Source of the DNA: Candidatus Thorarchaeota archaeon
GTDB taxonomy: Archaea; Asgardarchaeota; Thorarchaeia; Thorarchaeales; Thorarchaeaceae
Assembly: GCA_046482545.1 (NCBI GenBank)
Contig: JAWOEX010000010.1
Coordinates: 173,886-237,885, forward strand
Length of the DNA stretch: 64,000 bases
Reading direction: 5' to 3'
This document shows positions 7,261-63,128 of this stretch, one piece after another; positions within the stretch are counted from its first letter, which is position 1, and each line of letters opens with the position of its first letter. The notes below the pieces were generated by a model. It did not search any database. It saw nothing but the letters and a program-made list of their open reading frames with translations, and was not told where the DNA came from. Made by a program: the position numbers and the translations under genes.

Positions 7261-7438
7261 ATGACTCTAAGTGGTGACGAACGAACCAGATACTCGAGAA
7301 TGCTGCCACTGAGGCATTTTGATGAGAGCAAGATGGAGTCCATCAAAGAAACAAAGAGTTGCAGTGGCTGGCACTGGCGGTTTGGGATGCAACTTGCGCA
7401 GACTGCTTACTTCGTTCGGATTCGGACATATCAAGATA
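7261..7438 (+). pseudogene. ThiF/MoeB/UbaA (E1-like) 5' fragment, frameshifted and truncated by element B
   Basis: MTLSGDERTRYSRM..., then a frameshift near 7350-7356 to VAVAGTGGLG...FGFGHIKI (RYSR and GxGGLG motifs). Confidence 0.85.
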
Positions 7439-7875
7439 ACCCGTTTCTTACAGTTGAGTGAGTGGATCCAACTGAGGAAACTTCTGTGTTCCACCCTTCC
7501 CCTGCCAGCGTCACCGCCCCCAAGGTACCCGTAGGCCCTCGGGTCAGCAGGGGCTTTGTCCACGTTCACCGGAATAGGATTCCTCCCGCGGTCCTGGCTT
7601 CCTTCTCCTGTCGAACTCCGGTACATCACTCCCGGCGACAGCGAGTTCTTCCACAGTTCTTACCACGGCGTGGTCATGATCACCCACCTCAGCCTTGTCG
7701 CCGTAGCTGAGGAGATCCATCTGGACATGGTGAACAGCCGCGGACTCTCCAGGGTCTGATGGGACCCCTCGTTCGGAGAGTAAGGACTTCTGCTTAGAAG
7801 ACGACGTCTTCCTCACAGCCTTCGGGGCTGGGCGCTTCTCCCGTGGGGGAGTGGCTCACCGCCCTAGTCCTACTA
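7439..7875 (-). ncRNA. Putative TnpB omegaRNA scaffold (stand-alone copy B)
   Basis: Homologous to the region overlapping and downstream of the tnpB 3' end; TTTATTA box (7898-7904, minus strand) lies 23 nt upstream of the conserved agtaggac. Confidence 0.65.
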
Positions 7876-7997
7876 GACCGGACTCCCGTACTAGGCCTAA
7901 TAAACTCCCCTGCTTGAGAGAGAATCGTTACAGGAAATCTTACAGATATTTTACACTTTTCCACTCGGATTTTTTACGATTTTTGTAAAATTTACCC
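7439..7997 (-). mobile_element. Non-autonomous element B (left end plus omegaRNA/right end only)
   Basis: 7439-7870 closely aligns with 54640-55070 (3' end of tnpB and downstream); 7927-7997 matches the left-end hairpin at 62791-62859. Confidence 0.9.
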
Positions 7998-8007
7998 TTT
8001 CAAGACC

Positions 8008-8552
8008 TTTGTAAATCGTACAGAATCCTAAATAAATCAGCACAGTAGAGTGTAAGATTTCATCGAGCCCTTTTCGTGACCAAAAAGGAGTTTAGTAGAC
8101 AGACAACCGTACTGGATATCAGTAGGACCAGGCAAGTGGGCTAGCGCAGAAGCGCGAAGCACGCGGCTGAAAGATGTGAGGAAGTCCTGTGATTCTAAGC
8201 GGAAGTCCTTACTCTCCACAAAGAGAGCTTCATCGAACTCAGGAGGGTCCGCGGCTGTTCACCATGTCCAGATGGACCTTCTCATCTACGCTGACAAGGC
8301 TTATTCGGGTGATTGTGACCACGCCATGGTAAGAACTGTGGGAAACGTCGTTATCGCCGGAGTGACGACCCGGGATGACGACGGGAGGATGAAGCCAAGA
8401 CCGCAGGAGGAATCCCAATCCGATGAACGTGTGCAAAGCCTCTGCTTGCTCAAGGACTGAGAAGTATCTTGGGGCGGCGACCTTAGCAGGGGAAGGATGG
8501 AACACAGGAGTTTCCTCAGTTGGATTCACTCACTCAACTGTAAGAAACATGT
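8008..8552 (+). mobile_element. Non-autonomous element C, head-to-head with B
   Basis: 8011-8061 is the reverse complement of the left-end motif; 8120-8552 is homologous to the reverse complement of 54640-55070 and ends cactcaactgtaagaaacatgt|tatc. Confidence 0.9.
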
Positions 8553-8556
8553 TATC
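8121..8556 (+). ncRNA. Putative TnpB omegaRNA scaffold (stand-alone copy C)
   Basis: Same conserved block as B and E; TTTAGTA box at 8091-8097 lies 23 nt upstream of agtaggac. Confidence 0.6.
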
Positions 8557-49717: not shown

Positions 49718-51229
49718 TCAATACGATCTGAAGCCTTTTGGCAATTCACTTAGATACTCCTTGAAGCCGTCAGGCCATTTCTCTGAATCAAGTCCGTTCT
49801 GTGCGAGAAATACGACAGCCCAACGCTCAAGTCCGATTCCACTGCATCCTGACCAGAGATCGCCCTTCTGGGTCTTTATTGTAAATGCATCGGTGAATTT
49901 GTCACCTGCAATAGTCAGGTTCTGGAATTCAAGCCAGCTATCATTATCGGAATTGTCACCACGGTACGGAAGAAATGCCTCAAAATCGATGGTTCCCAGA
50001 ATATGCTCTGTTTCATCTTCAACACCATCTTGTCCCGATTGCTGCATATACCAGGGTGTGACCCAAGCCATCCGCCAATTAATCTCAAGAATATCATCGA
50101 AAACATGATGGAAACGTTCAATCAGCTCCTCTTTTAACTCGTTCAGCTGCTCAGGGGTACCGATGTAGACAATTTCGATTCGATGGAATTCATCACTTCT
50201 TTCAATGCCATGCCTGCCACCGGATTCGTACCTAGCTGAAGCTACCGTGTTCTCAAAAATCTTCAATGGGAGGTCTTCCTCGGGAATTACGGCTTTCTCG
50301 AACGACCAGTAAATGTTGGGGCATTGAGCGTATACAATGCCACCCTTAGGGTCTGATACCAACTTTCGTAGCTCGTCAATATCTACCTCATTTGTTATGT
50401 ACACCTTGTCTTGGAACTCCTGCCAGAACGCGGGGTCTCGTGTCGCTGGTTCACTAAAATAGTAGACCTCATTGGGTACACCCATCATATGGCCTGTGCG
50501 GCGCCATACATCGAAAGGAACGAAGTTTGATTCTATCACTTCCTGAAATCCCATGGGCTCAAGAATCTCTTTTTTGGCAATCTCTTTCATCGCATTAAGA
50601 ATGGCTGTGATTTCTGGACGGTAGAACCATTTGCCTTTCGTAGGACCTTTTACAATCCATTCCCGGTCCACCATTTCAGAAGATGGATCTTTCTCCCATT
50701 TCGGTTCACGGTATGAAGATTCTTCCATGAGTTCCCAGAACTCTTCCTTCCCCTCGTAATACTGTTTTTCAACGCGTTCCTCGATACGCCGCATCAGCCG
50801 TTCGACAGCACCACCAATAATGAAATTATTATCAACATTTCCGAGAATAACGGTGCATTTCTTATCATCGAACTCAAGTTTCTCGGCAAAAGGCATACTG
50901 AGTTCAGTGAGGGGCTCGGTTTCCAGCTCGAACCGTATTTCAAGCCGATCAATCATGGCGTCCTTTATGCCTAGATGGTATTCGCGGCCCAGCTTCTTGC
51001 CAAGGCATTTTTGCAGTCTGTAGAATAGCCTGTGAACAGGAGCTGCTTCAATCTCCAGCTGAACACGAACTTCGTCGCCAGCGATATTGCAGTCTCGAGT
51101 TTTCCAGTTCTGGTCTTCTGAAATGAACTCACCCGTACATTCTGCGAAGGCTTGTGTGAATTCCTCGTTCAAATCATCTGCACTCTTGCTCAAGCGCAAA
51201 ATTCCTGTCAACTTGTACTGATTGTCCAT
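49718..51229 (-). CDS. serS: Methanogen-type (type 2) seryl-tRNA synthetase
   Basis: LG..Y.LGI N-domain, YAQC, RYESGG.HGIER.DEFHRIE, LEFQN, WSGCSGIGLERW. Confidence 0.93.
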   Translation of the reverse strand: MDNQYKLTGILRLSKSADDLNEEFTQAFAECTGEFISEDQNWKTRDCNIAGDEVRVQLEIEAAPVHRLFYRLQKCLGKKLGREYHLGIKDAMIDRLEIRFELETEPLTELSMPFAEKLEFDDKKCTVILGNVDNNFIIGGAVERLMRRIEERVEKQYYEGKEEFWELMEESSYREPKWEKDPSSEMVDREWIVKGPTKGKWFYRPEITAILNAMKEIAKKEILEPMGFQEVIESNFVPFDVWRRTGHMMGVPNEVYYFSEPATRDPAFWQEFQDKVYITNEVDIDELRKLVSDPKGGIVYAQCPNIYWSFEKAVIPEEDLPLKIFENTVASARYESGGRHGIERSDEFHRIEIVYIGTPEQLNELKEELIERFHHVFDDILEINWRMAWVTPWYMQQSGQDGVEDETEHILGTIDFEAFLPYRGDNSDNDSWLEFQNLTIAGDKFTDAFTIKTQKGDLWSGCSGIGLERWAVVFLAQNGLDSEKWPDGFKEYLSELPKGFRSY

Positions 51230-53903: not shown

Positions 53904-54639
53904 TCAATCTATCATTTTTTCCATGATGCATCCAAGTAGCTCGAAGCCCATACTTCGACATAATTCCAGTTCGATATCATGTTCGGCATGCAACTGAAAA
54001 TATAGACTGGAGCAGTCTTTCTCAGCAGCCCAGTGCACTGCCTGCGATAGAAGCATCTGGCCCGCGCCACTAGGAGGCTCTTCACCAACCGCGAAGTCAT
54101 AGATTGCAGCAGTCTTCTTGTTGTGTTTGGCACGACCTACCCATACGAAACCAACAACACCCTCATCGGGGGACTCAAGCACGAATCGCTGCTGATTGCT
54201 ACCAAGACTGAAGCGCCGCCGCAGAAGCTCTTCGTATCGTTTGACAATATCCGCATCAGAAGCATCTGTACTGAACAACACGAGCCTTCTGAACCTCCGT
54301 AACCCAAGCATCTCTACTCGCTTTTCATCCTGAGGTTCTTGCTCACGAACAATAAGATCAGGTGATTTTTGTAACCTCACATGTTTCGGTTCAATGACAA
54401 GCGGATAGGCACGATACGCGTAGCCCTGAGATTCATACAATTGCTGCGCGGGAAAGTTATGTTCATGTACGAAAAGTCCAATGTTCCGGCCAAGTGTCCT
54501 CGCATATTCTTCTGCTCTTGCGATTAGCTTTCTCCCAAGGCCCTTTCGACGGTACTCCTTGTCAACAATGATGTCGTATATCCACAGAGCGCGTTCGATA
54601 TCCCAGATTTCCCGTTCTGTTCGGAGTGCAATCCAGATA
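53904..54639 (-). pseudogene. 3' part of a tandem GNAT acetyltransferase split by element E
   Basis: IWIA|LRTER...IVDKEYRRKGLGRKL; joins in frame to 62872-63128 (993 nt in total). Confidence 0.9.
54628..54639. repeat. 12-bp direct repeat GCAATCCAGATA (partner at 62860-62871)
   Basis: Exact match at both junctions of element E. Confidence 0.92.
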
Positions 54640-55075
54640 ACCCATTTCTTACAGTTGAGTGAGTGAACCCAACCGAGGAAACTCCTGTGTTCCACCCTTT
54701 CCTTGCCCAGTGTCACCACAATACCAAGGCGCTACCCCCGGCCAAGCAAGGACTTTGACCGCCATCATCAGGACACGGTCCCTCCTGCGGTCTCGGCTTC
54801 TGTCTCCTGCCCTGACCCGGATACATCACATCCGGGGGCAGCGAGGTCTTCCACAGCTTTTGCCACGGCGGGGTTATTATCGCTCTGCCCAGTCTCGTCA
54901 CCGAAACCAGACAGGTCCAATTGGACACAGCGAACAGCCGCGGACTCTCCGGGGTCTGATGAGGACCCCTTTTTGGAGAGTGAGGACTTCTGCTTAGAAG
55001 AACGAGTCTTCCTCACAGCCTTCGGGGCTGAACCGTTCCCCCGTTCGGGGGTGGCCCACCGCCCTAGTCCAGTCT
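54636..55075 (-). ncRNA. Putative omegaRNA of element E, overlapping the tnpB 3' end
   Basis: Position typical of TnpB omegaRNA/reRNA; this is the block retained in B and C. Confidence 0.7.
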
Positions 55076-56447
55076 CATCCTTAAGTGAAGGAATGAGCGT
55101 AAGTAAACGACGTGCGATGTTGAGGGAGCCATTCCGGTCGGCGTTGGTGCGGAAGCCGCACGTGTGGCATACGAACAAAGCCTGTTTCGGCCGTACTCCC
55201 TTGTTGCCACACTTCCAGCACATTATCGAGGTCCAGTTTTCAGGCACCGCATGGAATCGGCTATCCTTGCCTTCCACTTCCCACCCGAGCTGTTCGAGTC
55301 CGTTTTTAAGCCCCTCGGTAATACGCGAGAAGCTCCACCTGTGCACCATACCCCTGAACTTGGAACCTTTGTAGTTGCCACGCCTAGCGGCATTCCGGAT
55401 ACCCTTGAGCCTCCCGATACCAACATAGAGCTGATACTGTTGGCTTAGCTTTTCGACATACGACAAGAGATCGCTGACGAGGGCCCGATCATAGGTCTTA
55501 GCCGCATCCGCCCGCTTCGTTTTGAGCTCCTTGAGCTTGCTGATCAACCCGTCACAGTCGTTCCCATTGCTCCTCCTGATATCGAGGTCGTGCTGGAGGT
55601 CCGCTATCCGCTCCTCATATTGGAGGAACACTTGGTGCTTCTCTTCCTGCCTGAAGTACCGGGTGCTTGATATTCTCTTCTCAGTAACGAGGGTCGTGCA
55701 TGCTGCACAATTGATACCCAGGTCAATACCAAGGACAGCAGGCGGTAACTCAGCATCCTTTATTTTCTCAATAGCGGTAAGGCGTATCGCAATAGCAGCC
55801 CACCACTTCCCATGCCGGTCGGTGAATACCTGTACAGCTTTAGGCTTCCCTCGATCCAGTTCCTCAAGGTGATAGGGTGAGGTTTTCAGGGGGATGCGGA
55901 GCCTGTCATGGATCCTGCGGCCTTCTGGTACAGAGTCCAGTGAATCACGGATGTCGAGCCACAGCCGCGCGATCGTCGTTTCGTGCTCAACAAGCTTCGC
56001 CCTGTAGGGAATGTACATCATCCGGGGAATCCGCCTTTCGCTGTTGGTCTCTGCAGGCCGGGAGGCCTTTCTCCACTTCTTAACGCGCAGGGCCAGGTAG
56101 CTCTCGTAGTTGGCTATAGCGATACGCCGACACTCTTGAAGTTCATTGGCTGATATCCGGGGAAACCGTGCTTTGAGGTCATGGTCAACTTCCAGTCTCT
56201 GTTCCTCACCATGAGCAACCCGCAAGGCAGTCATGGTCATCACATCGAGCTTGTTCTCATCGATGCGCTTCTTCGCCTTGCCTCTAAGCAGGTCTTCCTC
56301 GTTTTCTTCTATGATACCGAAGAATGCATGAATGACCCGTGAATCCCTTCCCGTGATCTGTTCCAATCGCTGACGACTGGAGCTGGTCATCTCTTTCCAT
56401 GCTATGGGAATCTTGACCGTAATCACAGGGGTGTTGGAGTCTGTCAT
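54768..56447 (-). CDS. tnpB: TnpB-family RNA-guided nuclease, 559 aa, rearranged RuvC-II
   Basis: LGIDLG (RuvC-I); VGIGRL where E is expected; VPENWTSIMCWKC; CHTC; NADRNGSLNIA (RuvC-III). Confidence 0.92.
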   Translation of the reverse strand: MTDSNTPVITVKIPIAWKEMTSSSRQRLEQITGRDSRVIHAFFGIIEENEEDLLRGKAKKRIDENKLDVMTMTALRVAHGEEQRLEVDHDLKARFPRISANELQECRRIAIANYESYLALRVKKWRKASRPAETNSERRIPRMMYIPYRAKLVEHETTIARLWLDIRDSLDSVPEGRRIHDRLRIPLKTSPYHLEELDRGKPKAVQVFTDRHGKWWAAIAIRLTAIEKIKDAELPPAVLGIDLGINCAACTTLVTEKRISSTRYFRQEEKHQVFLQYEERIADLQHDLDIRRSNGNDCDGLISKLKELKTKRADAAKTYDRALVSDLLSYVEKLSQQYQLYVGIGRLKGIRNAARRGNYKGSKFRGMVHRWSFSRITEGLKNGLEQLGWEVEGKDSRFHAVPENWTSIMCWKCGNKGVRPKQALFVCHTCGFRTNADRNGSLNIARRLLTLIPSLKDETGLGRWATPERGNGSAPKAVRKTRSSKQKSSLSKKGSSSDPGESAAVRCVQLDLSGFGDETGQSDNNPAVAKAVEDLAAPGCDVSGSGQETEAETAGGTVS

Positions 56448-56702
56448 GGGTATCGCCTATTTAAACCTCTAACCTGTTTCGGGGGTAGTTGAGTTCACTC
56501 CTCATGTAGTTTTGACCCGAGGTAATGAACTCATATTCTGATACAGCATAGTCATATTTAAACCTATTAAGAAGAAATATTAATTCAATATTTGATACTC
56601 TTCTAAGGTCATTAGAAACTCCCCAGTTTCATTTCTATACTTAACTATAATAAATAACAACCCGCAAAAAATATAAGAAAATAAACCCCCAGCGTACCAC
56701 CA
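56448..56702. promoter_or_regulatory. AT-rich divergent promoter region between tnpB and the 1410-aa gene
   Basis: Several TTTAAA/TATAA tracts between the head-to-head starts. Confidence 0.55.
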
Positions 56703-59700
56703 TTGTCAAGAAGTCGTGGACGGCCTTCAAAGGTCATGCCTAAACACCCAAACAAGGTGATCTCACTCGCGGTTCGCAGAGGCCTTTCTGCCGCTGTTGA
56801 ATTGCAGCGGAATATCCAGAATAAAAAAACTGAGAACCTCTATCGAAGTTCGCGTGACAGTTTGGCAGCCGCAAAGGATGTCTATTATCAGACCGTTGAA
56901 AGTGGTGAAGGCGACCACAAGTATATCATCAAGGCAGAGTCGACCATCAGGAAGAACCTCCTGAAGATGATCATGGAAAACACCGCCGCTTATGGGAACA
57001 CCGAAGTGAAACGTGTCAGGAACCCTCACGCGAAAGTTGGGCCGCTAAATCAGCGGTTCAATGTCCTGGGTGCCCAGCTCCGCAATTTTGGTATGACCCG
57101 GTACCTCTTCCCAGACCCCAAGTTGTTCCGTTATGAAACTCGGATAGTCGGAGAAAAAAGGAAGGAATACCGTGTAGCAGGATACCCTCCGGATTCCTAC
57201 GGTCCTCGCACTCCCCTGGTCCATCCGAATCTTCCGTCCCTTGACCTGGTCGACTCAATCAGGCACCACCTCGACTATTTCGCAGGCTACGCCTTCATCT
57301 ACGATATACCTCCAAGGGAGGCCGGCCGCTACTGGAACCTCTACCAGCTACGAGCCCGGCCCTATCTGGATTATTTATACTCCGAGTGCCTTATCGGAAC
57401 GAACGGGTTCAGAGGAGGAACCGATAGTATACTCAGGGAACTGAAAGAAGACGTTGAGTATCACTATGAAACCCGTCAAGGAGCACCAAGAACGGTCACA
57501 GAGTCCAAGCCAGAGAGGAAACCGACCCTGTCCACGGATATCTGTCGCAATTGGATTGAGGAGGCATACTCTAAGGGAATCACTCATGAGTCGATTGAAG
57601 AGTTTGAGTTGGTAGTCGAAGATGAGTCGCTGTTCCGGGAGGGCGATATGGCTAGGCTCTATTCTCGCCTAGAAGAGAAAGCCAGTAAGACTGGCTCACG
57701 GGTTCATGAATTTGTGTTCAGCCAATTAACCAGCCCCTGGTCGCTCCGTGACGCGATTACACGGGGTGACTCGTACGGAAGCAGCGACGGGTATCTCGTG
57801 TGTTTTGAGACCCCTCTCGATACAGAGAAAGGCAAAGGAAAAGCGGATGTGATCCTCTTGCGGCGGGTAGTATCTGAGCAGGGAAATCAAGCCCATTACC
57901 GACCGGTTATGGTGCTGGATTTGAAAACAAAACTGGGGCCCACTATAACACTCGGGATCAAAGACATCCACTCCGAAGTGGACTCAAAACGCACATTCGT
58001 GGAGCGAACCTTCCCGCCTGAGTATGCGTTCAGAAAGCAAGAGGAAGAGAAAAAGAGATACAAACGGGTCATAGACTACCGCTTCGGTCGGAGGCCGCTG
58101 GATGACGAGGAATGGGAAGCATTCATTCAGGCCATGCCGGACGAAGACACACAAAAACAGATAGACGCCTATACAGCTGCAGTTTCGGATATATACAAGG
58201 AATTGACCGACTGCGGGGAGAAGCCCGCCATCTTCACAGGTACAATGCTTGTTGACGTGACCGAAGACATAAGACTGCTTCGAGACATGCTCCGCGGGTT
58301 GATCATCAATGCCTACGAAGAAGTCGCAAAGGGGCCTCTGAGGGAGGGCAGGGTCGTGCTTGAACCAAAGGTCCGTGGCCACAAGCCCCGTGTCGCTCTG
58401 GTCATGAACGAACAAGAACAGCCGGTGAAAGCTACCGAAACGCCAATACAACCTTCATGGCGACCCCCATACAATCCATTAACACTGGCACAATCTCACG
58501 GAAGGCGATTCCTCCTCTTTACATCAGCAGCATCACCAACCTCTTCCGGTATTTCAGCGGCGTGGCATGCGAAGTACTACCATGGGCTACAGGAAATCAA
58601 GCAGATGACTGAAGAACACGAGTACGATGATATCGTCTGGATAGACCTGGCCAGCGATTTCATAGAACCGGAGCTTCGTGAAGCTCGGTTGTTGCTCCGA
58701 CCCTACTCAAACGATGAGGAAGACACTCGGCGGGCCCACCGGCAGGATGTCCAGGAACTTGTTGATAGGATTTCGTTCAGGGGGCTTTTTGACGAAGTTG
58801 ATTCGTTCATCTTCCGCAATGGTGCCGCTGAAGCTGTAGGAAAACGATTGGAATCGCTCCCGCAAGAAGACTGCTTGATTGTAGTCTCCGGGATGGATAC
58901 AATCCGATACGCAACACCTGAGCCTTATCGTTGGCAATTGAATCCCCTCCTCAGAATCATACTTTCACAGCTCCCAACTTCGGACTCAGCCACCATCTTC
59001 TGGTTTGACTCACCTGTACCAGCAGCAGAAATGTCCACCCCCTATTCAAAACGGTCACTGCTCCCGTTCTATGACTCGTCTCCCCTGCGGGGTGTTGTCA
59101 GCCAGATCATCTGGAACCTGCCTGTGGCGCCGCGGGATGAAGTCCTTCCCGGGGAGTGGTTCTTGCCTTATCCCACAAAAACGCCGATGTACGACGATAT
59201 TAGAGTCATAGTCAGGCAAAAGAAAACAGGCTTCTCGATAGAATCGACCCTCGTTCCCCTGCTTATGGAGTGGTCGAAAAGATTCGATAACAGGGGCATG
59301 GGCAAAGTCTCCCATAGAAATAGCTTTGCTGAAGTAGTACCCGATGCCTCGGTCAGGGCCCGGATGGAAACCCTTGCGCTTTCTCTGATCCCCTGGCTCG
59401 TCGACCTGCATCCGACCCAGAAGATGGACGCCAAGCACGGATTCCAGTGTATTCGTCAAGAGTACGAACAAATGCTTTCAGAATACTCGATTCCCCAGGA
59501 CATAATCACCTTTGACCGGTCGGTACTGGCGACTCCTCTTGGCAGTGCACCTTCTCTCCTTAAACGCGTGCGAATCCGGCCTGACGGTGCTGGAGGGGGA
59601 AAGGCCTTTCAACCGTTGTATGTCGGTGTCATCAATTATCCCCGGATATACCATGAATCACAGAAACTGAAAACCAAACCTTGGCGGCTCCAGCAGAAAC

Positions 59701-60935
59701 CATCCCCAGCACAAGACCAGGTAGACCTTGTCGATATTCGCTTCGTGATGACCCTTTCATCATATGGAGAAGAGTATGAGTGGCGTGCTGTCCTGGACCC
59801 GAGTACGACAGCGGGCATCGCATTCGGGTTGTTTCCGACTGGTCAAACCAAGGAGGGCATTGAATGGGGCCTCCAGCGACTGGATTTGGTTCAGCAAGCC
59901 GCAAAACGATTGCATCGCTTCAATGACGTAAAGATATACATCCTCAGAAGGAAAAGGAACCCGAATTCGGATGCAGAGAAGAGCCCCGGGTGGTGGATGT
60001 GGAGGCAGACTGATGGACCATCGGCCTGGACATTTGTCGGTACGTGTGACTATGTCCTGCGTCGGAGTTCAGCTGACATCGCTCTGCAAGGTTTTGGCAT
60101 CAATCCAAGGGATCCCCCGGGGGGAGTTTCGGTCCCAGATATGCCGTTCCCTTCGGGTTTCGAAACTGGTCTGCGGAGCGCTATTCGCGACCTGTCGGAG
60201 AATCTTGGGAGGGTACAAGCGGTGAAGGTGCAGCTGCGTAAGTATGGTGAACGTTGTGCGGTCAAGTTCATAGACAGTGAAAGCGAGGAATCCCTTCACA
60301 CACTCCTACTCAACAATACAGTTGATGTCCTGAGGTTGCTCAAGTGGCCATGGACAGCGGGACGGCCACTGCGGGTGGGGAACCTGCACCTGACATGGAA
60401 CACGCTCCACGATTATTCCCGGATAGAACCAGACATCGACTTTGGAGAAGAGTATAGATTCCTAGAAAGTTACATGGTGAGCACCTCAAGGGGTTTGAGA
60501 CCGTCGCTCTCTCCCCTCATCGATGCTGCTGTGGAAGACTTACAACCAGAGCAAATCACCATCTATCACAATGAGGTGTTATGTCCCCTTACCAAAGACC
60601 CGAGGCTAGACCATGATGCCTGTTGGGCTGTGGAGCTGTCGCCAAGCAGCTGGCAGCTCTTGGGTGGCAAGAACACTGCCATTCACGAAGGATTGACAGA
60701 TACGCAGGTGAGAGAACTCATCGATACCCTAGAAGGGGCACTGGAAGGACAGCGAATCGCACTGACATTTGACCCTGGTAAAACCGATGTTGACAGACTC
60801 GTCTTCAGCGAAAGCGAAGTCATGCGAGAATTATCGGCAAAGCACAGGGGGATATCTATGACAAAGCACCATCCTGGTCATACTGTCCGCATCAAGATCA
60901 TGCGAGAGCGGTATGGGATTGAGGGAGATGAATGA
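56703..60935 (+). CDS. 1410-aa protein: AT-hook, Cas4/RecB-like PD-(D/E)XK nuclease, degenerate RecA-like domain, unknown C-terminus
   Basis: SRGRPS; GSRVHE...FETPL...GKADVI...LDLKT...QIDAY; LLFTSAASPTSSGIS...IVWID...LIVVSGMD. Confidence 0.8.
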   Translation: MSRSRGRPSKVMPKHPNKVISLAVRRGLSAAVELQRNIQNKKTENLYRSSRDSLAAAKDVYYQTVESGEGDHKYIIKAESTIRKNLLKMIMENTAAYGNTEVKRVRNPHAKVGPLNQRFNVLGAQLRNFGMTRYLFPDPKLFRYETRIVGEKRKEYRVAGYPPDSYGPRTPLVHPNLPSLDLVDSIRHHLDYFAGYAFIYDIPPREAGRYWNLYQLRARPYLDYLYSECLIGTNGFRGGTDSILRELKEDVEYHYETRQGAPRTVTESKPERKPTLSTDICRNWIEEAYSKGITHESIEEFELVVEDESLFREGDMARLYSRLEEKASKTGSRVHEFVFSQLTSPWSLRDAITRGDSYGSSDGYLVCFETPLDTEKGKGKADVILLRRVVSEQGNQAHYRPVMVLDLKTKLGPTITLGIKDIHSEVDSKRTFVERTFPPEYAFRKQEEEKKRYKRVIDYRFGRRPLDDEEWEAFIQAMPDEDTQKQIDAYTAAVSDIYKELTDCGEKPAIFTGTMLVDVTEDIRLLRDMLRGLIINAYEEVAKGPLREGRVVLEPKVRGHKPRVALVMNEQEQPVKATETPIQPSWRPPYNPLTLAQSHGRRFLLFTSAASPTSSGISAAWHAKYYHGLQEIKQMTEEHEYDDIVWIDLASDFIEPELREARLLLRPYSNDEEDTRRAHRQDVQELVDRISFRGLFDEVDSFIFRNGAAEAVGKRLESLPQEDCLIVVSGMDTIRYATPEPYRWQLNPLLRIILSQLPTSDSATIFWFDSPVPAAEMSTPYSKRSLLPFYDSSPLRGVVSQIIWNLPVAPRDEVLPGEWFLPYPTKTPMYDDIRVIVRQKKTGFSIESTLVPLLMEWSKRFDNRGMGKVSHRNSFAEVVPDASVRARMETLALSLIPWLVDLHPTQKMDAKHGFQCIRQEYEQMLSEYSIPQDIITFDRSVLATPLGSAPSLLKRVRIRPDGAGGGKAFQPLYVGVINYPRIYHESQKLKTKPWRLQQKPSPAQDQVDLVDIRFVMTLSSYGEEYEWRAVLDPSTTAGIAFGLFPTGQTKEGIEWGLQRLDLVQQAAKRLHRFNDVKIYILRRKRNPNSDAEKSPGWWMWRQTDGPSAWTFVGTCDYVLRRSSADIALQGFGINPRDPPGGVSVPDMPFPSGFETGLRSAIRDLSENLGRVQAVKVQLRKYGERCAVKFIDSESEESLHTLLLNNTVDVLRLLKWPWTAGRPLRVGNLHLTWNTLHDYSRIEPDIDFGEEYRFLESYMVSTSRGLRPSLSPLIDAAVEDLQPEQITIYHNEVLCPLTKDPRLDHDACWAVELSPSSWQLLGGKNTAIHEGLTDTQVRELIDTLEGALEGQRIALTFDPGKTDVDRLVFSESEVMRELSAKHRGISMTKHHPGHTVRIKIMRERYGIEGDE

Positions 60936-60937
60936 GG

Positions 60938-61558
60938 TCACTTTCCAGAGCGTTGCCCCCTGATGATTTCGGTCGCCCCGAACCTATGCGCGTGCCGTTC
61001 TTCCCCCTCTTTCTCAAACTGGGTGAGTCCCCAGTACATCGTAGAGACCATGAGCACTTTCTGATCATTCAGAGGATCTGCAGAGTATCCGAATGTGATA
61101 TCTGGACTCTTCTCTATTCCCCCTGAGAGAGCTGCAGGTAATGATATCGTTGCCTTTATCGCAGTGACGGACGGGTCTCCTGGGGGCTGTTTGCATATGT
61201 AGCCCCAGAACCGTGGGTACAGTCCGATTGGTCCCTGAATCCTGTGGATGGCAGTGGGTACGAGGAGCAAGGAGCAGTCAACCAAGTCGTCGCTCCAGGT
61301 CAGCTCCTCGTACTGTGAATCAGTATCGAGGAACATAATCTCGTCCATACACTCGTAGACGAACATCTGCCAGAGCGCCTGTTCTTCCCCTAGATCTTCT
61401 ACTTCGTCACAGTCTTCGTACATTTCGGGATACCAGTCAAGATCGACATCGATCGCCTTGCCAGTCATGACTTTGAGTACGTACGGGCTGTCCCCGTCGG
61501 ACCCCCTTGGACCCATGAACTCGCTGAGATCGTCTGAGCCTGTATCGTCGCTCATCAC
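60938..61558 (-). CDS. Acidic hypothetical cargo protein
   Basis: 206-aa ORF with GGAG upstream, convergent on the giant gene. Confidence 0.7.
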   Translation of the reverse strand: MMSDDTGSDDLSEFMGPRGSDGDSPYVLKVMTGKAIDVDLDWYPEMYEDCDEVEDLGEEQALWQMFVYECMDEIMFLDTDSQYEELTWSDDLVDCSLLLVPTAIHRIQGPIGLYPRFWGYICKQPPGDPSVTAIKATISLPAALSGGIEKSPDITFGYSADPLNDQKVLMVSTMYWGLTQFEKEGEERHAHRFGATEIIRGQRSGK

Positions 61559-62290
61559 ACATTCTCTCCCATAGAAGAAACTCGTGCCGGGTCGTGAGCT
61601 GAAATTGCGTTGGTATGATATTGAATTCCCAAGTCGTTGAGTCTATATTCAGCCCGGGAACGTAGACGATTTGATGCTATGCTCCCGCTTCCCTGATACT
61701 GGTGAGGCTTTCGGTTTCCATGTCGTTTCGTAATCGCTTGAGTAGTTCCTTTATTTGGTTCTTTCAGCATAGGTAACCTGTTCATAGGACATACCCTCTG
61801 ATAGTATAGCTACTAGAAACTGGCTGGCATCAATCTTTCGGTTTTCATACCCGGGGTGTATGAGGGTTTTTGAGAACCCATCTGAGCGGTCATACTATTT
61901 TTTACATATTCATTTCACCTTAAAACTTCTAGATTTTACTAATCAGACCTATAAATGCCCAGATGAAAAGACCTTTGCAGTAGTTTCCCGGTCTCCACGG
62001 TTTTTTTAGGCGCCATGCTTGTCATTATGATAGTACAAAGCCATATTCCACTGAGAAATCTGCAATCCGCATGTGTGCATGGAACCCGGGAAAGTCACTC
62101 CGCAGGGATAGGCTGAAATTGCACCCTTGAAGGTGTCCAGCTCAGCTTGGGTATCGCTGATAAGAACGTTCTATCAAAGCTTGGTGGGTTGTGACCTTGA
62201 AGGACTAGAAGAACCACTTCCTGAAAATATCACTCTCAACGTTGCAATGCACATATTCTCTTGAGCTTGGAGTCTGGTTACTATGGTGGA

Positions 62291-62360
62291 GTTAAGAGAA
62301 AATCATACAAGCATTGCACATCTGGAACTGTTGATTTTTTGAGGATTTTGTAAAATCCAT
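62291..62360. repeat. Internal degenerate second copy of the left end
   Basis: gttaagagaaaatcataca...gattttttgaggattttgtaaaatcc versus ggtaacaggaaatcttaca...gatttatttaggattttgtaaaattcc. Confidence 0.7.
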
Positions 62361-62790
62361 TGTGTTCCAAGAGACAAGACTCGCTGCAGAGTATGGTTTC
62401 TTGAACCTAATTGTGGAGAAATACTGCTGGGACTGGATGATACGCGGCTGAGCATCTACGGTGACGGCCACCTGATCGAGAACTAGCAGCCCTATGAATG
62501 TGACACCAAGAAATTACATTCGACGTACATCATCTTGAACAGGGTCAAGGACTTTTCTACTTGCGCTGACCTCTCGGAGTTCACGCTGTTTGCAGAGAAG
62601 CTCAAAGAGAACAAGGAATAGAAGAAGACGAAACAGACCTTGAGCAGCTGGCGGGGGAGGCAGGTGTTAAGGCTGTAGATTTGTTACGCTCATGACACAG
62701 TCTATACTCTCAATATGGGTGGCTGGATTCCTGCCATACGGGTAGGATACCGACTTGGTGTATGCAAGATGGTCTATCTCCCACACGAGG

Positions 62791-62859
62791 TAACAGGAAA
62801 TCTTACAGAAATCTTACACTTCTATGTGCCGATTTATTTAGGATTTTGTAAAATTCCGA
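62791..62859. repeat. Left-end hairpin with GAAATCTTACA repeats
   Basis: ggaaatcttacagaaatcttaca...ggattttgtaaaattcc: two direct copies and one inverted copy. Confidence 0.85.
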
Positions 62860-63128
62860 GCAATCCAGATATGACCGGCATAGGTTCCATCCTCATCTTC
62901 AGCAATGAAAATGCGACAGTCATCACGCTCCAAGTCATAAGAGTCCACAACTTCATCCTTGAATATCTGGAATATCTCTTCCTCTGACCTGTCAGGATAT
63001 TTTTCCTTCAACTCGATATAGTGCCTATCATTAGTTGATCTAGCAGTTTCAAAGGACATGCGATAGAAGTTCTGCATATCTTCCTCATCTTTTCGTCGGC
63101 GGATATTGAATTGCATTATGGACGCCAC
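62860..63128 (-). pseudogene. 5' part of the split GNAT gene
   Basis: MASIMQFNIRR...IFIAEDEDGTYAGHIWIA, then runs into element sequence and stops. Confidence 0.9.

Follow-up and report, generated by a model that had tools for sequence, protein, structure and literature searches.

The window, the whole 64,000-nucleotide stretch of DNA analysed here, carries a tnpB gene that forms the right-hand part of an 8.2-kb insertion (54638-62863); a GNAT gene is interrupted by this insertion, and the hexamer TCTGGA has been duplicated. The features of the insertion and its flanks, in window coordinates, are as follows.

53904-54631, minus strand: C-terminal part of the GNAT gene; joined in frame, the two parts encode 330 aa
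54632-54637, minus strand: right copy of TCTGGA (consensus TCNNGA)
54638-55070, minus strand: right end and putative omega-RNA scaffold (z -2.6), containing the GTTCACTCA loop motif; dozens of gene-less copies in the genome repeat it
54768-56447, minus strand: tnpB, a 559-aa ORF matching Pfam PF07282
56470-56532, no strand assigned: conserved leader made up of GAGTTCA, a variable hairpin and GAGTGAACTC, partly repeating the right end
56703-60935, plus strand: 1,410-aa giant, head-to-head with tnpB, with a Cas1 fold, a PD-(D/E)xK domain and a P-loop-like region
60938-61558, minus strand: 206-aa ORF inside the element, without a family match
62367-62591, plus strand: C-terminal remnant of another giant allele (65% with the giant of locus L024), adjoining the left end
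62750-62863, minus strand: left end, an imperfect inverted repeat of the right end with internal TGTAAGA-type repeats
62864-62869, minus strand: left copy of TCTGGA
62864-63128, minus strand: N-terminal part of the interrupted GNAT gene

Removal of the 8.2 kb together with one repeat copy restored the 330-aa GNAT frame; no uninterrupted GNAT orthologue was found in two genomes of the same genus. The remnant of another giant allele beside the left end suggests that the giant gene has been replaced inside the element. Outside the insertion, at 49718-51229 of the window, lies a gene for a class II tRNA synthetase of 503 aa that includes a tRNA_bind_4 domain, which we take to be probably a methanogen-type SerRS.

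The last 430 nt of tnpB recur across the genome, with 81 right-end and 55 left-end matches. About 30 right/left end pairs form gene-less copies of about 550 bp, and these pairs define the ends at 54638 and 62863. Nearest-copy identities of 71 to 95% suggest that the bursts are over and not ongoing. Two gene-less copies lie back to back in opposite orientation within the window (7435-8555; C20 181320-182440).

In 19 of 32 elements the left and right TCNNGA hexamers were the same, with nine spellings represented; shuffles gave 3.1. The target duplication may be read as 6, 5 or 4 bp, or as a 2-bp crossover core. A 12-bp duplication as the rule was rejected, the similarity of the left end to the flank past the hexamer being at chance level (p 0.23). 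We found no TAM-like consensus upstream of the duplications among the elements compared. TCNNGA itself, read as a TAM, would target the filled junction. Simple homing therefore fits poorly: TCNNGA and flank stand at the filled right junction, and the upstream sequence shows no consensus like a TAM.

In the giant, residues ~8 to 245 form a helical domain with a Cas1 fold, like the Cas1 catalytic domain: in a fold search with the giant N terminus, the best 12 of 48,161 chains were all Cas1 or casposase (Z 8.8 to 12.5), and the best 16 Foldseek matches were Cas1, at E values of 1e-3 or weaker. The domain is missing the N-terminal part of Cas1, the alignments beginning at about Cas1 residues 80 to 113. 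E79, H174, D181, D184 and R187 were conserved in every aligned row that covered them, and judged by motif they may correspond to the Cas1 triad. An hhalign profile comparison with Asgard Cas1s was not significant, and E79 fell on the Cas1 catalytic Glu only in a forced alignment. Searches of Pfam, NCBIfam and PDB sequences with the giant gave no match, and the Pfam Cas1 profile matched nowhere in the genome. Other Asgard genomes gave weak Cas1 matches in ORFs of 1,300 aa, which proved unrelated to the giant. Further along, residues ~328 to 549 resemble PD-(D/E)xK nucleases (Z 7.1), with E369, D382 and K408 invariant; a degenerate P-loop-like region at ~600 to 860 is a lead only. So are the atlas feature matches (Mrr-type nuclease, AAA), which scored below 0.9, and the atlas fold search was uninformative.

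Homologues of the giant stand head-to-head with tnpB in four copies in the genome, one of them with an intervening 224-aa ORF, and upstream of tnpB in 35 of the 49 loci with enough upstream DNA, duplicates included. Giants within one genome are 24 to 32% identical, and the element ends are nearly identical. One copy (L037:14235-16435) has three extra genes by the giant, one encoding a RecA/Rad51-like ATPase. At G000:C32:32738-34214 (L030), a host gene for a 378-aa membrane-transporter-like protein is bracketed by a left end and an incomplete right end, a possible case of cargo capture.

The Cas1 fold, together with a T/variable region/GTTCACTCA signature downstream of tnpB, identifies the locus as an element of the published aCas1-TnpB (Cas1H-Asgard) type. 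The aCas1 designation reportedly goes back to Makarova et al. 2020. As in the passages of Altae-Tran et al. (2023; PMC10691335) that describe Cas1H-Asgard-1 and -2, the host is an Asgard archaeon, a Cas1-fold gene is adjacent, repeats flank the element (here imperfect inverted ends and the TCNNGA duplication), and the giant is found with two distinct groups of TnpB. Those passages describe neither ends nor a duplication motif, and mention neither gene-less derivatives nor a link to IS607; our analysis adds TCNNGA duplications, ~30 gene-less 550-bp copies and giants that also occur in IS607 elements. Casposons (PMC9939771) offer a second comparison: they share with the element a Cas1-fold candidate integrase, terminal inverted repeats and a target duplication, and one subclade of the element sits at tRNA-Gly. 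In contrast to casposons, the element has no PolB gene, only the giant, tnpB and the 206-aa ORF lying between its ends; its duplication is 6 bp, where the A. boonei casposase makes one of 15 bp (PMC9939771); its truncated Cas1 domain is fused to a nuclease; and it carries TnpB. The tRNA-abutting subclade, which is close to our TnpB (L025:12229-12303, which is G000:C23; L032:11823-11898; L043, L044 and L045), lies tail-to-tail with the tRNA 3' end, which is that of tRNA-Gly(TCC) in L025 and L032, and its right end is decayed. At L032:5040-5155, a duplicate of ~45 bp of the tRNA 3' half and an older right end at the other side resemble a tandem tRNA-targeted insertion.

What moves the element? 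The Cas1-fold domain is the sole integrase-like candidate inside it, and we tentatively regard this domain as the integrase for both the element and its gene-less copies, an assignment that has close to an even chance of being right. A less probable but serious contender is movement in trans, by a lost or unassembled IS607-type serine TnpA or another recombinase, in which case the giant would be a swapped passenger, TC-NN-GA would be the crossover core and TnpB would still be active. Many intact Thorarchaeota IS607 tnpA genes adjoin the 3' end of a giant, and a relative of TnpB is located behind an IS607 tnpA. On a tree, giants from the two kinds of element are intermixed, which argues that the giant has been exchanged between elements. 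Two post hoc observations on the hexamer also favour a crossover core: left/right mismatches fell at positions 2 and 3 in 9 of 11 cases, and copies with a neighbour of at least 92% identity all shared NN=AA (overall p 0.09 to 0.15). Inheritance of NN along lineages was not significant overall. Against movement in trans, the TnpB of the IS607-giant elements is another one, ~730 aa long with the canonical Glu, and their ends differ as well; searches of the 99%-complete genome found neither an IS607 TnpA nor a resolvase or tyrosine recombinase. Nor did left ends across the genus contain a transposase; the DDE elements of the genome have other ends, and its Y1 match is a fragment. The failure to find a tyrosine recombinase (PF00589) in this archaeal genome was unexpected. 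Archaea usually have XerA.

Five loci illustrate the IS607 arrangement (L452, L454, L455, L457 and L458), in which tnpA is accompanied by the Cas1-like giant, converging, and by a divergent TnpB with the canonical Glu; this TnpB has ~710 to 730 aa and is shorter or split in L457 and L458. The genome also holds four DDE insertion sequences of ~985 bp with GGCTCTGTAAAAT ends (G000:C29, C4, C9 and C18; L489, L492), two of them adjoined by a separate 130- to 140-bp repeat family of more than a dozen copies.

Whichever enzyme moves the element, its right end overlaps the 3' end of tnpB, and we think it quite likely that the ~430-nt structured region there is the guide scaffold; an Rfam search with it gave no match. 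For the Cas1H-Asgard loci, the relevant passages of Altae-Tran et al. (PMC10691335) describe a T, a hypervariable stretch and GTTCACTCA downstream of tnpB, the stretch being proposed as a possible, spacer-like guide. Here the stretch is instead one arm of a covarying hairpin, pairing with the sequence after the loop, and the reading as an internal guide was rejected. Cognate arms gave -10.8 kcal/mol versus -7.7 kcal/mol for swapped arms, a difference reached in 0 of 20,000 permutations, a result inflated by the kinship of the sequences.

In the mechanism that we propose, TnpB would bind the structured RNA made from the 3' end of its own gene, use as its guide the sequence just outside the right end and cut element-free alleles, which would favour retention of the element, as established for IS200/605 and IS607 TnpBs. 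On balance we favour such selfish upkeep of the element as the role of TnpB. A bolder scheme would make the Cas1-fold transposase and the TnpB-omega-RNA complex one machine, a polymerase-free Cas1 transposon with RNA-influenced integration and dozens of gene-less copies supplying different guides; a fixed TCNNGA with random flanks fits unguided insertion better, and we think RNA-coupled integration improbable.

The residues of TnpB that bear on nuclease activity are these.

55722-55724, minus strand: RuvC-I Asp242 (VLGIDLG), kept in 116 of 116 homologues
55413-55415, minus strand: Gly345 (YVGIGRL) at the canonical RuvC-II Glu position, on strand 339-346, in 115 of 116 homologues
55239-55241, minus strand: alternative catalytic Glu403, just after strand 398-402, in 116 of 116 homologues
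55158-55220, minus strand: C4 zinc finger (C410, C413, C427 and C430, the second pair reading CHTC)
55137-55139, minus strand: RuvC-III Asp437 (NADRN), kept in 116 of 116 homologues

The original prediction, which covered residues 235 to 446, described a TnpB with both RuvC Asp residues intact, YVGIGRL at the RuvC-II position and a Glu about 58 aa later. All of this held: the two Asp residues are D242 and D437, and G345 and E403 are exactly 58 residues apart. The column of G345 is that of the RuvC-II Glu in Cas12f and TnpB structures in our alignment. VPENWTSIMCWKC holds E403 (VPENWTS) followed by C410 and C413, so that the shifted Glu comes six residues before the zinc finger (ExxxxxxC). Because D242, E403 and D437 occur in every homologue and G345 in all but one, the pattern is not due to chance, and the Gly plus ExxTS pattern extends across a much wider clade than these 116 proteins. 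The product scored 83.8 bits against NCBIfam guided_TnpB (NF040570), under the cut-off of 100; its folded core runs up to residue ~455, and the tail beyond is encoded over the putative guide-RNA scaffold. The named homologues are mostly from Thorarchaeota, which supports the Asgard host that had been thought probable, and the family is present in 55 of the 87 genomes of the order. A literature search returned no paper containing both "Thorarchaeota" and "TnpB."

In the AlphaFold model of TnpB (pLDDT 84.7), D242 belongs to the first RuvC strand, and the last RuvC helix begins at D437. The model topology fits the RuvC-II-rearranged (RIIr) layout, in which, as set out in the part of Altae-Tran et al. 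(2023; PMC10691335) devoted to it, the catalytic Glu has moved onto the next core strand. When TnpB was aligned with Fanzor2-like proteins of giant viruses, E403 stood in an invariant column that corresponds to E467 of ApmFz2, the mimivirus Fanzor2, which reads ICIGKL at the RuvC-II position. E467 is essential in ApmFz2 (Jiang et al. 2023; PMC10530073), whose triad is D324/E467/D501 (PDB 9B0L). An archaeal TnpB with the same swap, TvTnpB, is active and does not show collateral cutting (Jiang et al. 2023; PMC10530073). Because the residues are invariant, the topology is RIIr-like, the E467 column matches and TvTnpB is active, TnpB is likely an intact, active enzyme with a relocated Glu, as judged from conservation, model topology and the ApmFz2 alignment. 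By analogy, D242, E403 and D437 would very probably bind Mg2+ as D324, E467 and D501 do in ApmFz2, with TnpB cutting guide-matched double-stranded DNA beside a TAM, probably without collateral activity, as in TvTnpB.

An alternative reading would make the protein a TldR-like repressor, guided by RNA but dead as a nuclease, that might act on its own divergent promoter. The leader lies upstream of a TATA-like box at 56459-56465 and has a short match to the scaffold loop, one variant being found at both sites in two close loci; a sigma-70 promoter scan, using a model unsuited to an archaeon, stayed at chance level. The matched leader segment is, however, a hairpin arm and loop rather than a free guide. 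Loss of the triad, the hallmark of TldRs, is not seen, all three acidic residues being invariant, and the identical swap is active in ApmFz2 and TvTnpB. A repressor is therefore very unlikely, and we retain the active nuclease.

The original prediction had also held that the swap characterises Fanzors and their closest relatives and that the protein might bear on Fanzor origins. The first of these does not hold: a shifted Glu alone was found in 5,053 TnpBs (Yoon et al., bioRxiv 10.1101/2023.08.09.552727), and TvTnpB has one too. Pro-Fanzors combine the shifted Glu with DPG and come mostly from cyanobacterial IS607 elements, the published source of Fanzors (Yoon et al., bioRxiv 10.1101/2023.08.09.552727). 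In TnpB the shifted Glu occupies the ApmFz2 column, with the ExxxxxxC spacing that ApmFz2 also has. TnpB differs from Fanzor2 and pro-Fanzors in reading DLG rather than DPG at RuvC-I (L243 in 116 of 116 homologues), a difference on which the original prediction was silent, and NADxN rather than RDxN, in falling in a separate clade and in having no IS607 tnpA in cis. It resembles TnpB2/TvTnpB of Thermoplasma volcanium (PMC10530073) and the RIIr branches, as presented in the sections of PMC10691335 concerned, with Gly at RuvC-II, an alternative Glu before the zinc finger, a D-phi-G RuvC-I motif and an archaeal host. It departs from these in its length of 559 aa and a shift of 58 residues (about 45 is quoted), and from TvTnpB, which belongs to an IS605 (Y1) element, in having a Cas1-fold partner. 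The nearest folds were Cas12f (Z 20.5 to 21.9), with ApmFz2 behind (Z 17.6), and a profile search gave the same order (E 1e-14 to 1e-9 for Cas12f, 0.0012 for ApmFz2).

A phylogeny against Fanzors had been proposed. Ours (92 rows, a short alignment of 237 columns) drew on viral contigs and plasmids for its Fanzor2-like DPG proteins and canonical TnpBs, with Fanzor1, named pro-Fanzors and TvTnpB outside the set. TnpB fell apart from the Fanzor2-like proteins, in a shifted-Glu clade of 34 rows (99/99); the named members of that clade belong to Thorarchaeota and to Odin-, Heimdall- and Hodarchaeota. This clade was placed among canonical TnpBs with NADxN, its exact sister group being weakly supported. 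The Fanzor2-like proteins formed their own clade (100/100), on the same side of a 96/91 branch as DRDxN-type TnpBs. Forced grouping of the two was rejected (AU p=0.02) with the motif columns, which should favour grouping, kept in and with the long-branch row P0303 dropped from the tested clade post hoc, after the tree had been seen. Phage TnpBs made up a third shifted-Glu group, separate again, which shows the swap to be recurrent, as had been anticipated. At L389:7312-9725 an IS607 serine TnpA accompanies P0182, an Asgard relative of TnpB with the shifted Glu, so the Asgard shifted-Glu clade has switched carriers.

From its DLG and NADxN motifs, Cas12f-like fold and position in the tree, we conclude that the swap arose here separately from that of Fanzors, the independent convergence that had been offered as the other outcome. 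That the family is ancestral or sister to Fanzors and passed to eukaryotes from an Asgard host, as the Gly plus ExxTS swap common to TnpB and ApmFz2, the Asgard host, the IS607-linked relative and the suggestion of Jiang et al. (PMC10530073), made with this clade out of view, that TnpBs came from both endosymbiotic partners might invite, is most unlikely given the invariant L243 in place of DPG, the closer match to Cas12f, the AU result even with motif columns retained and the published cyanobacterial source.

Taken together, we consider it likely that this TnpB is an intact RNA-guided nuclease of a Thorarchaeota-wide family, standing at the right end of an 8.2-kb aCas1-TnpB-type mobile element and bearing a swap separate from that of Fanzors. 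Weighing against this reading are the low identity of the giants (only 24 to 32%) beside nearly identical ends, the related giants in IS607 elements that have a serine TnpA of their own, the N-terminal part of Cas1 that the domain is missing, the non-significant profile comparison and the poor fit of simple homing. The catalytic rearrangement was already known and has evolved repeatedly, and an active archaeal example, TvTnpB, is published; the picture of Fanzor origins is therefore unchanged, except for an argument against an Asgard source as far as this clade is concerned. By analogy with TvTnpB, the protein may be a further candidate for a compact nuclease without collateral cutting. With exact ends, a target motif, a split host gene and ~30 mini-copies in hand, the published idea that Cas1 homologues may act as transposases in Asgard archaea becomes directly testable, and the IS607-linked giants provide a clear competing hypothesis to Cas1 transposition.
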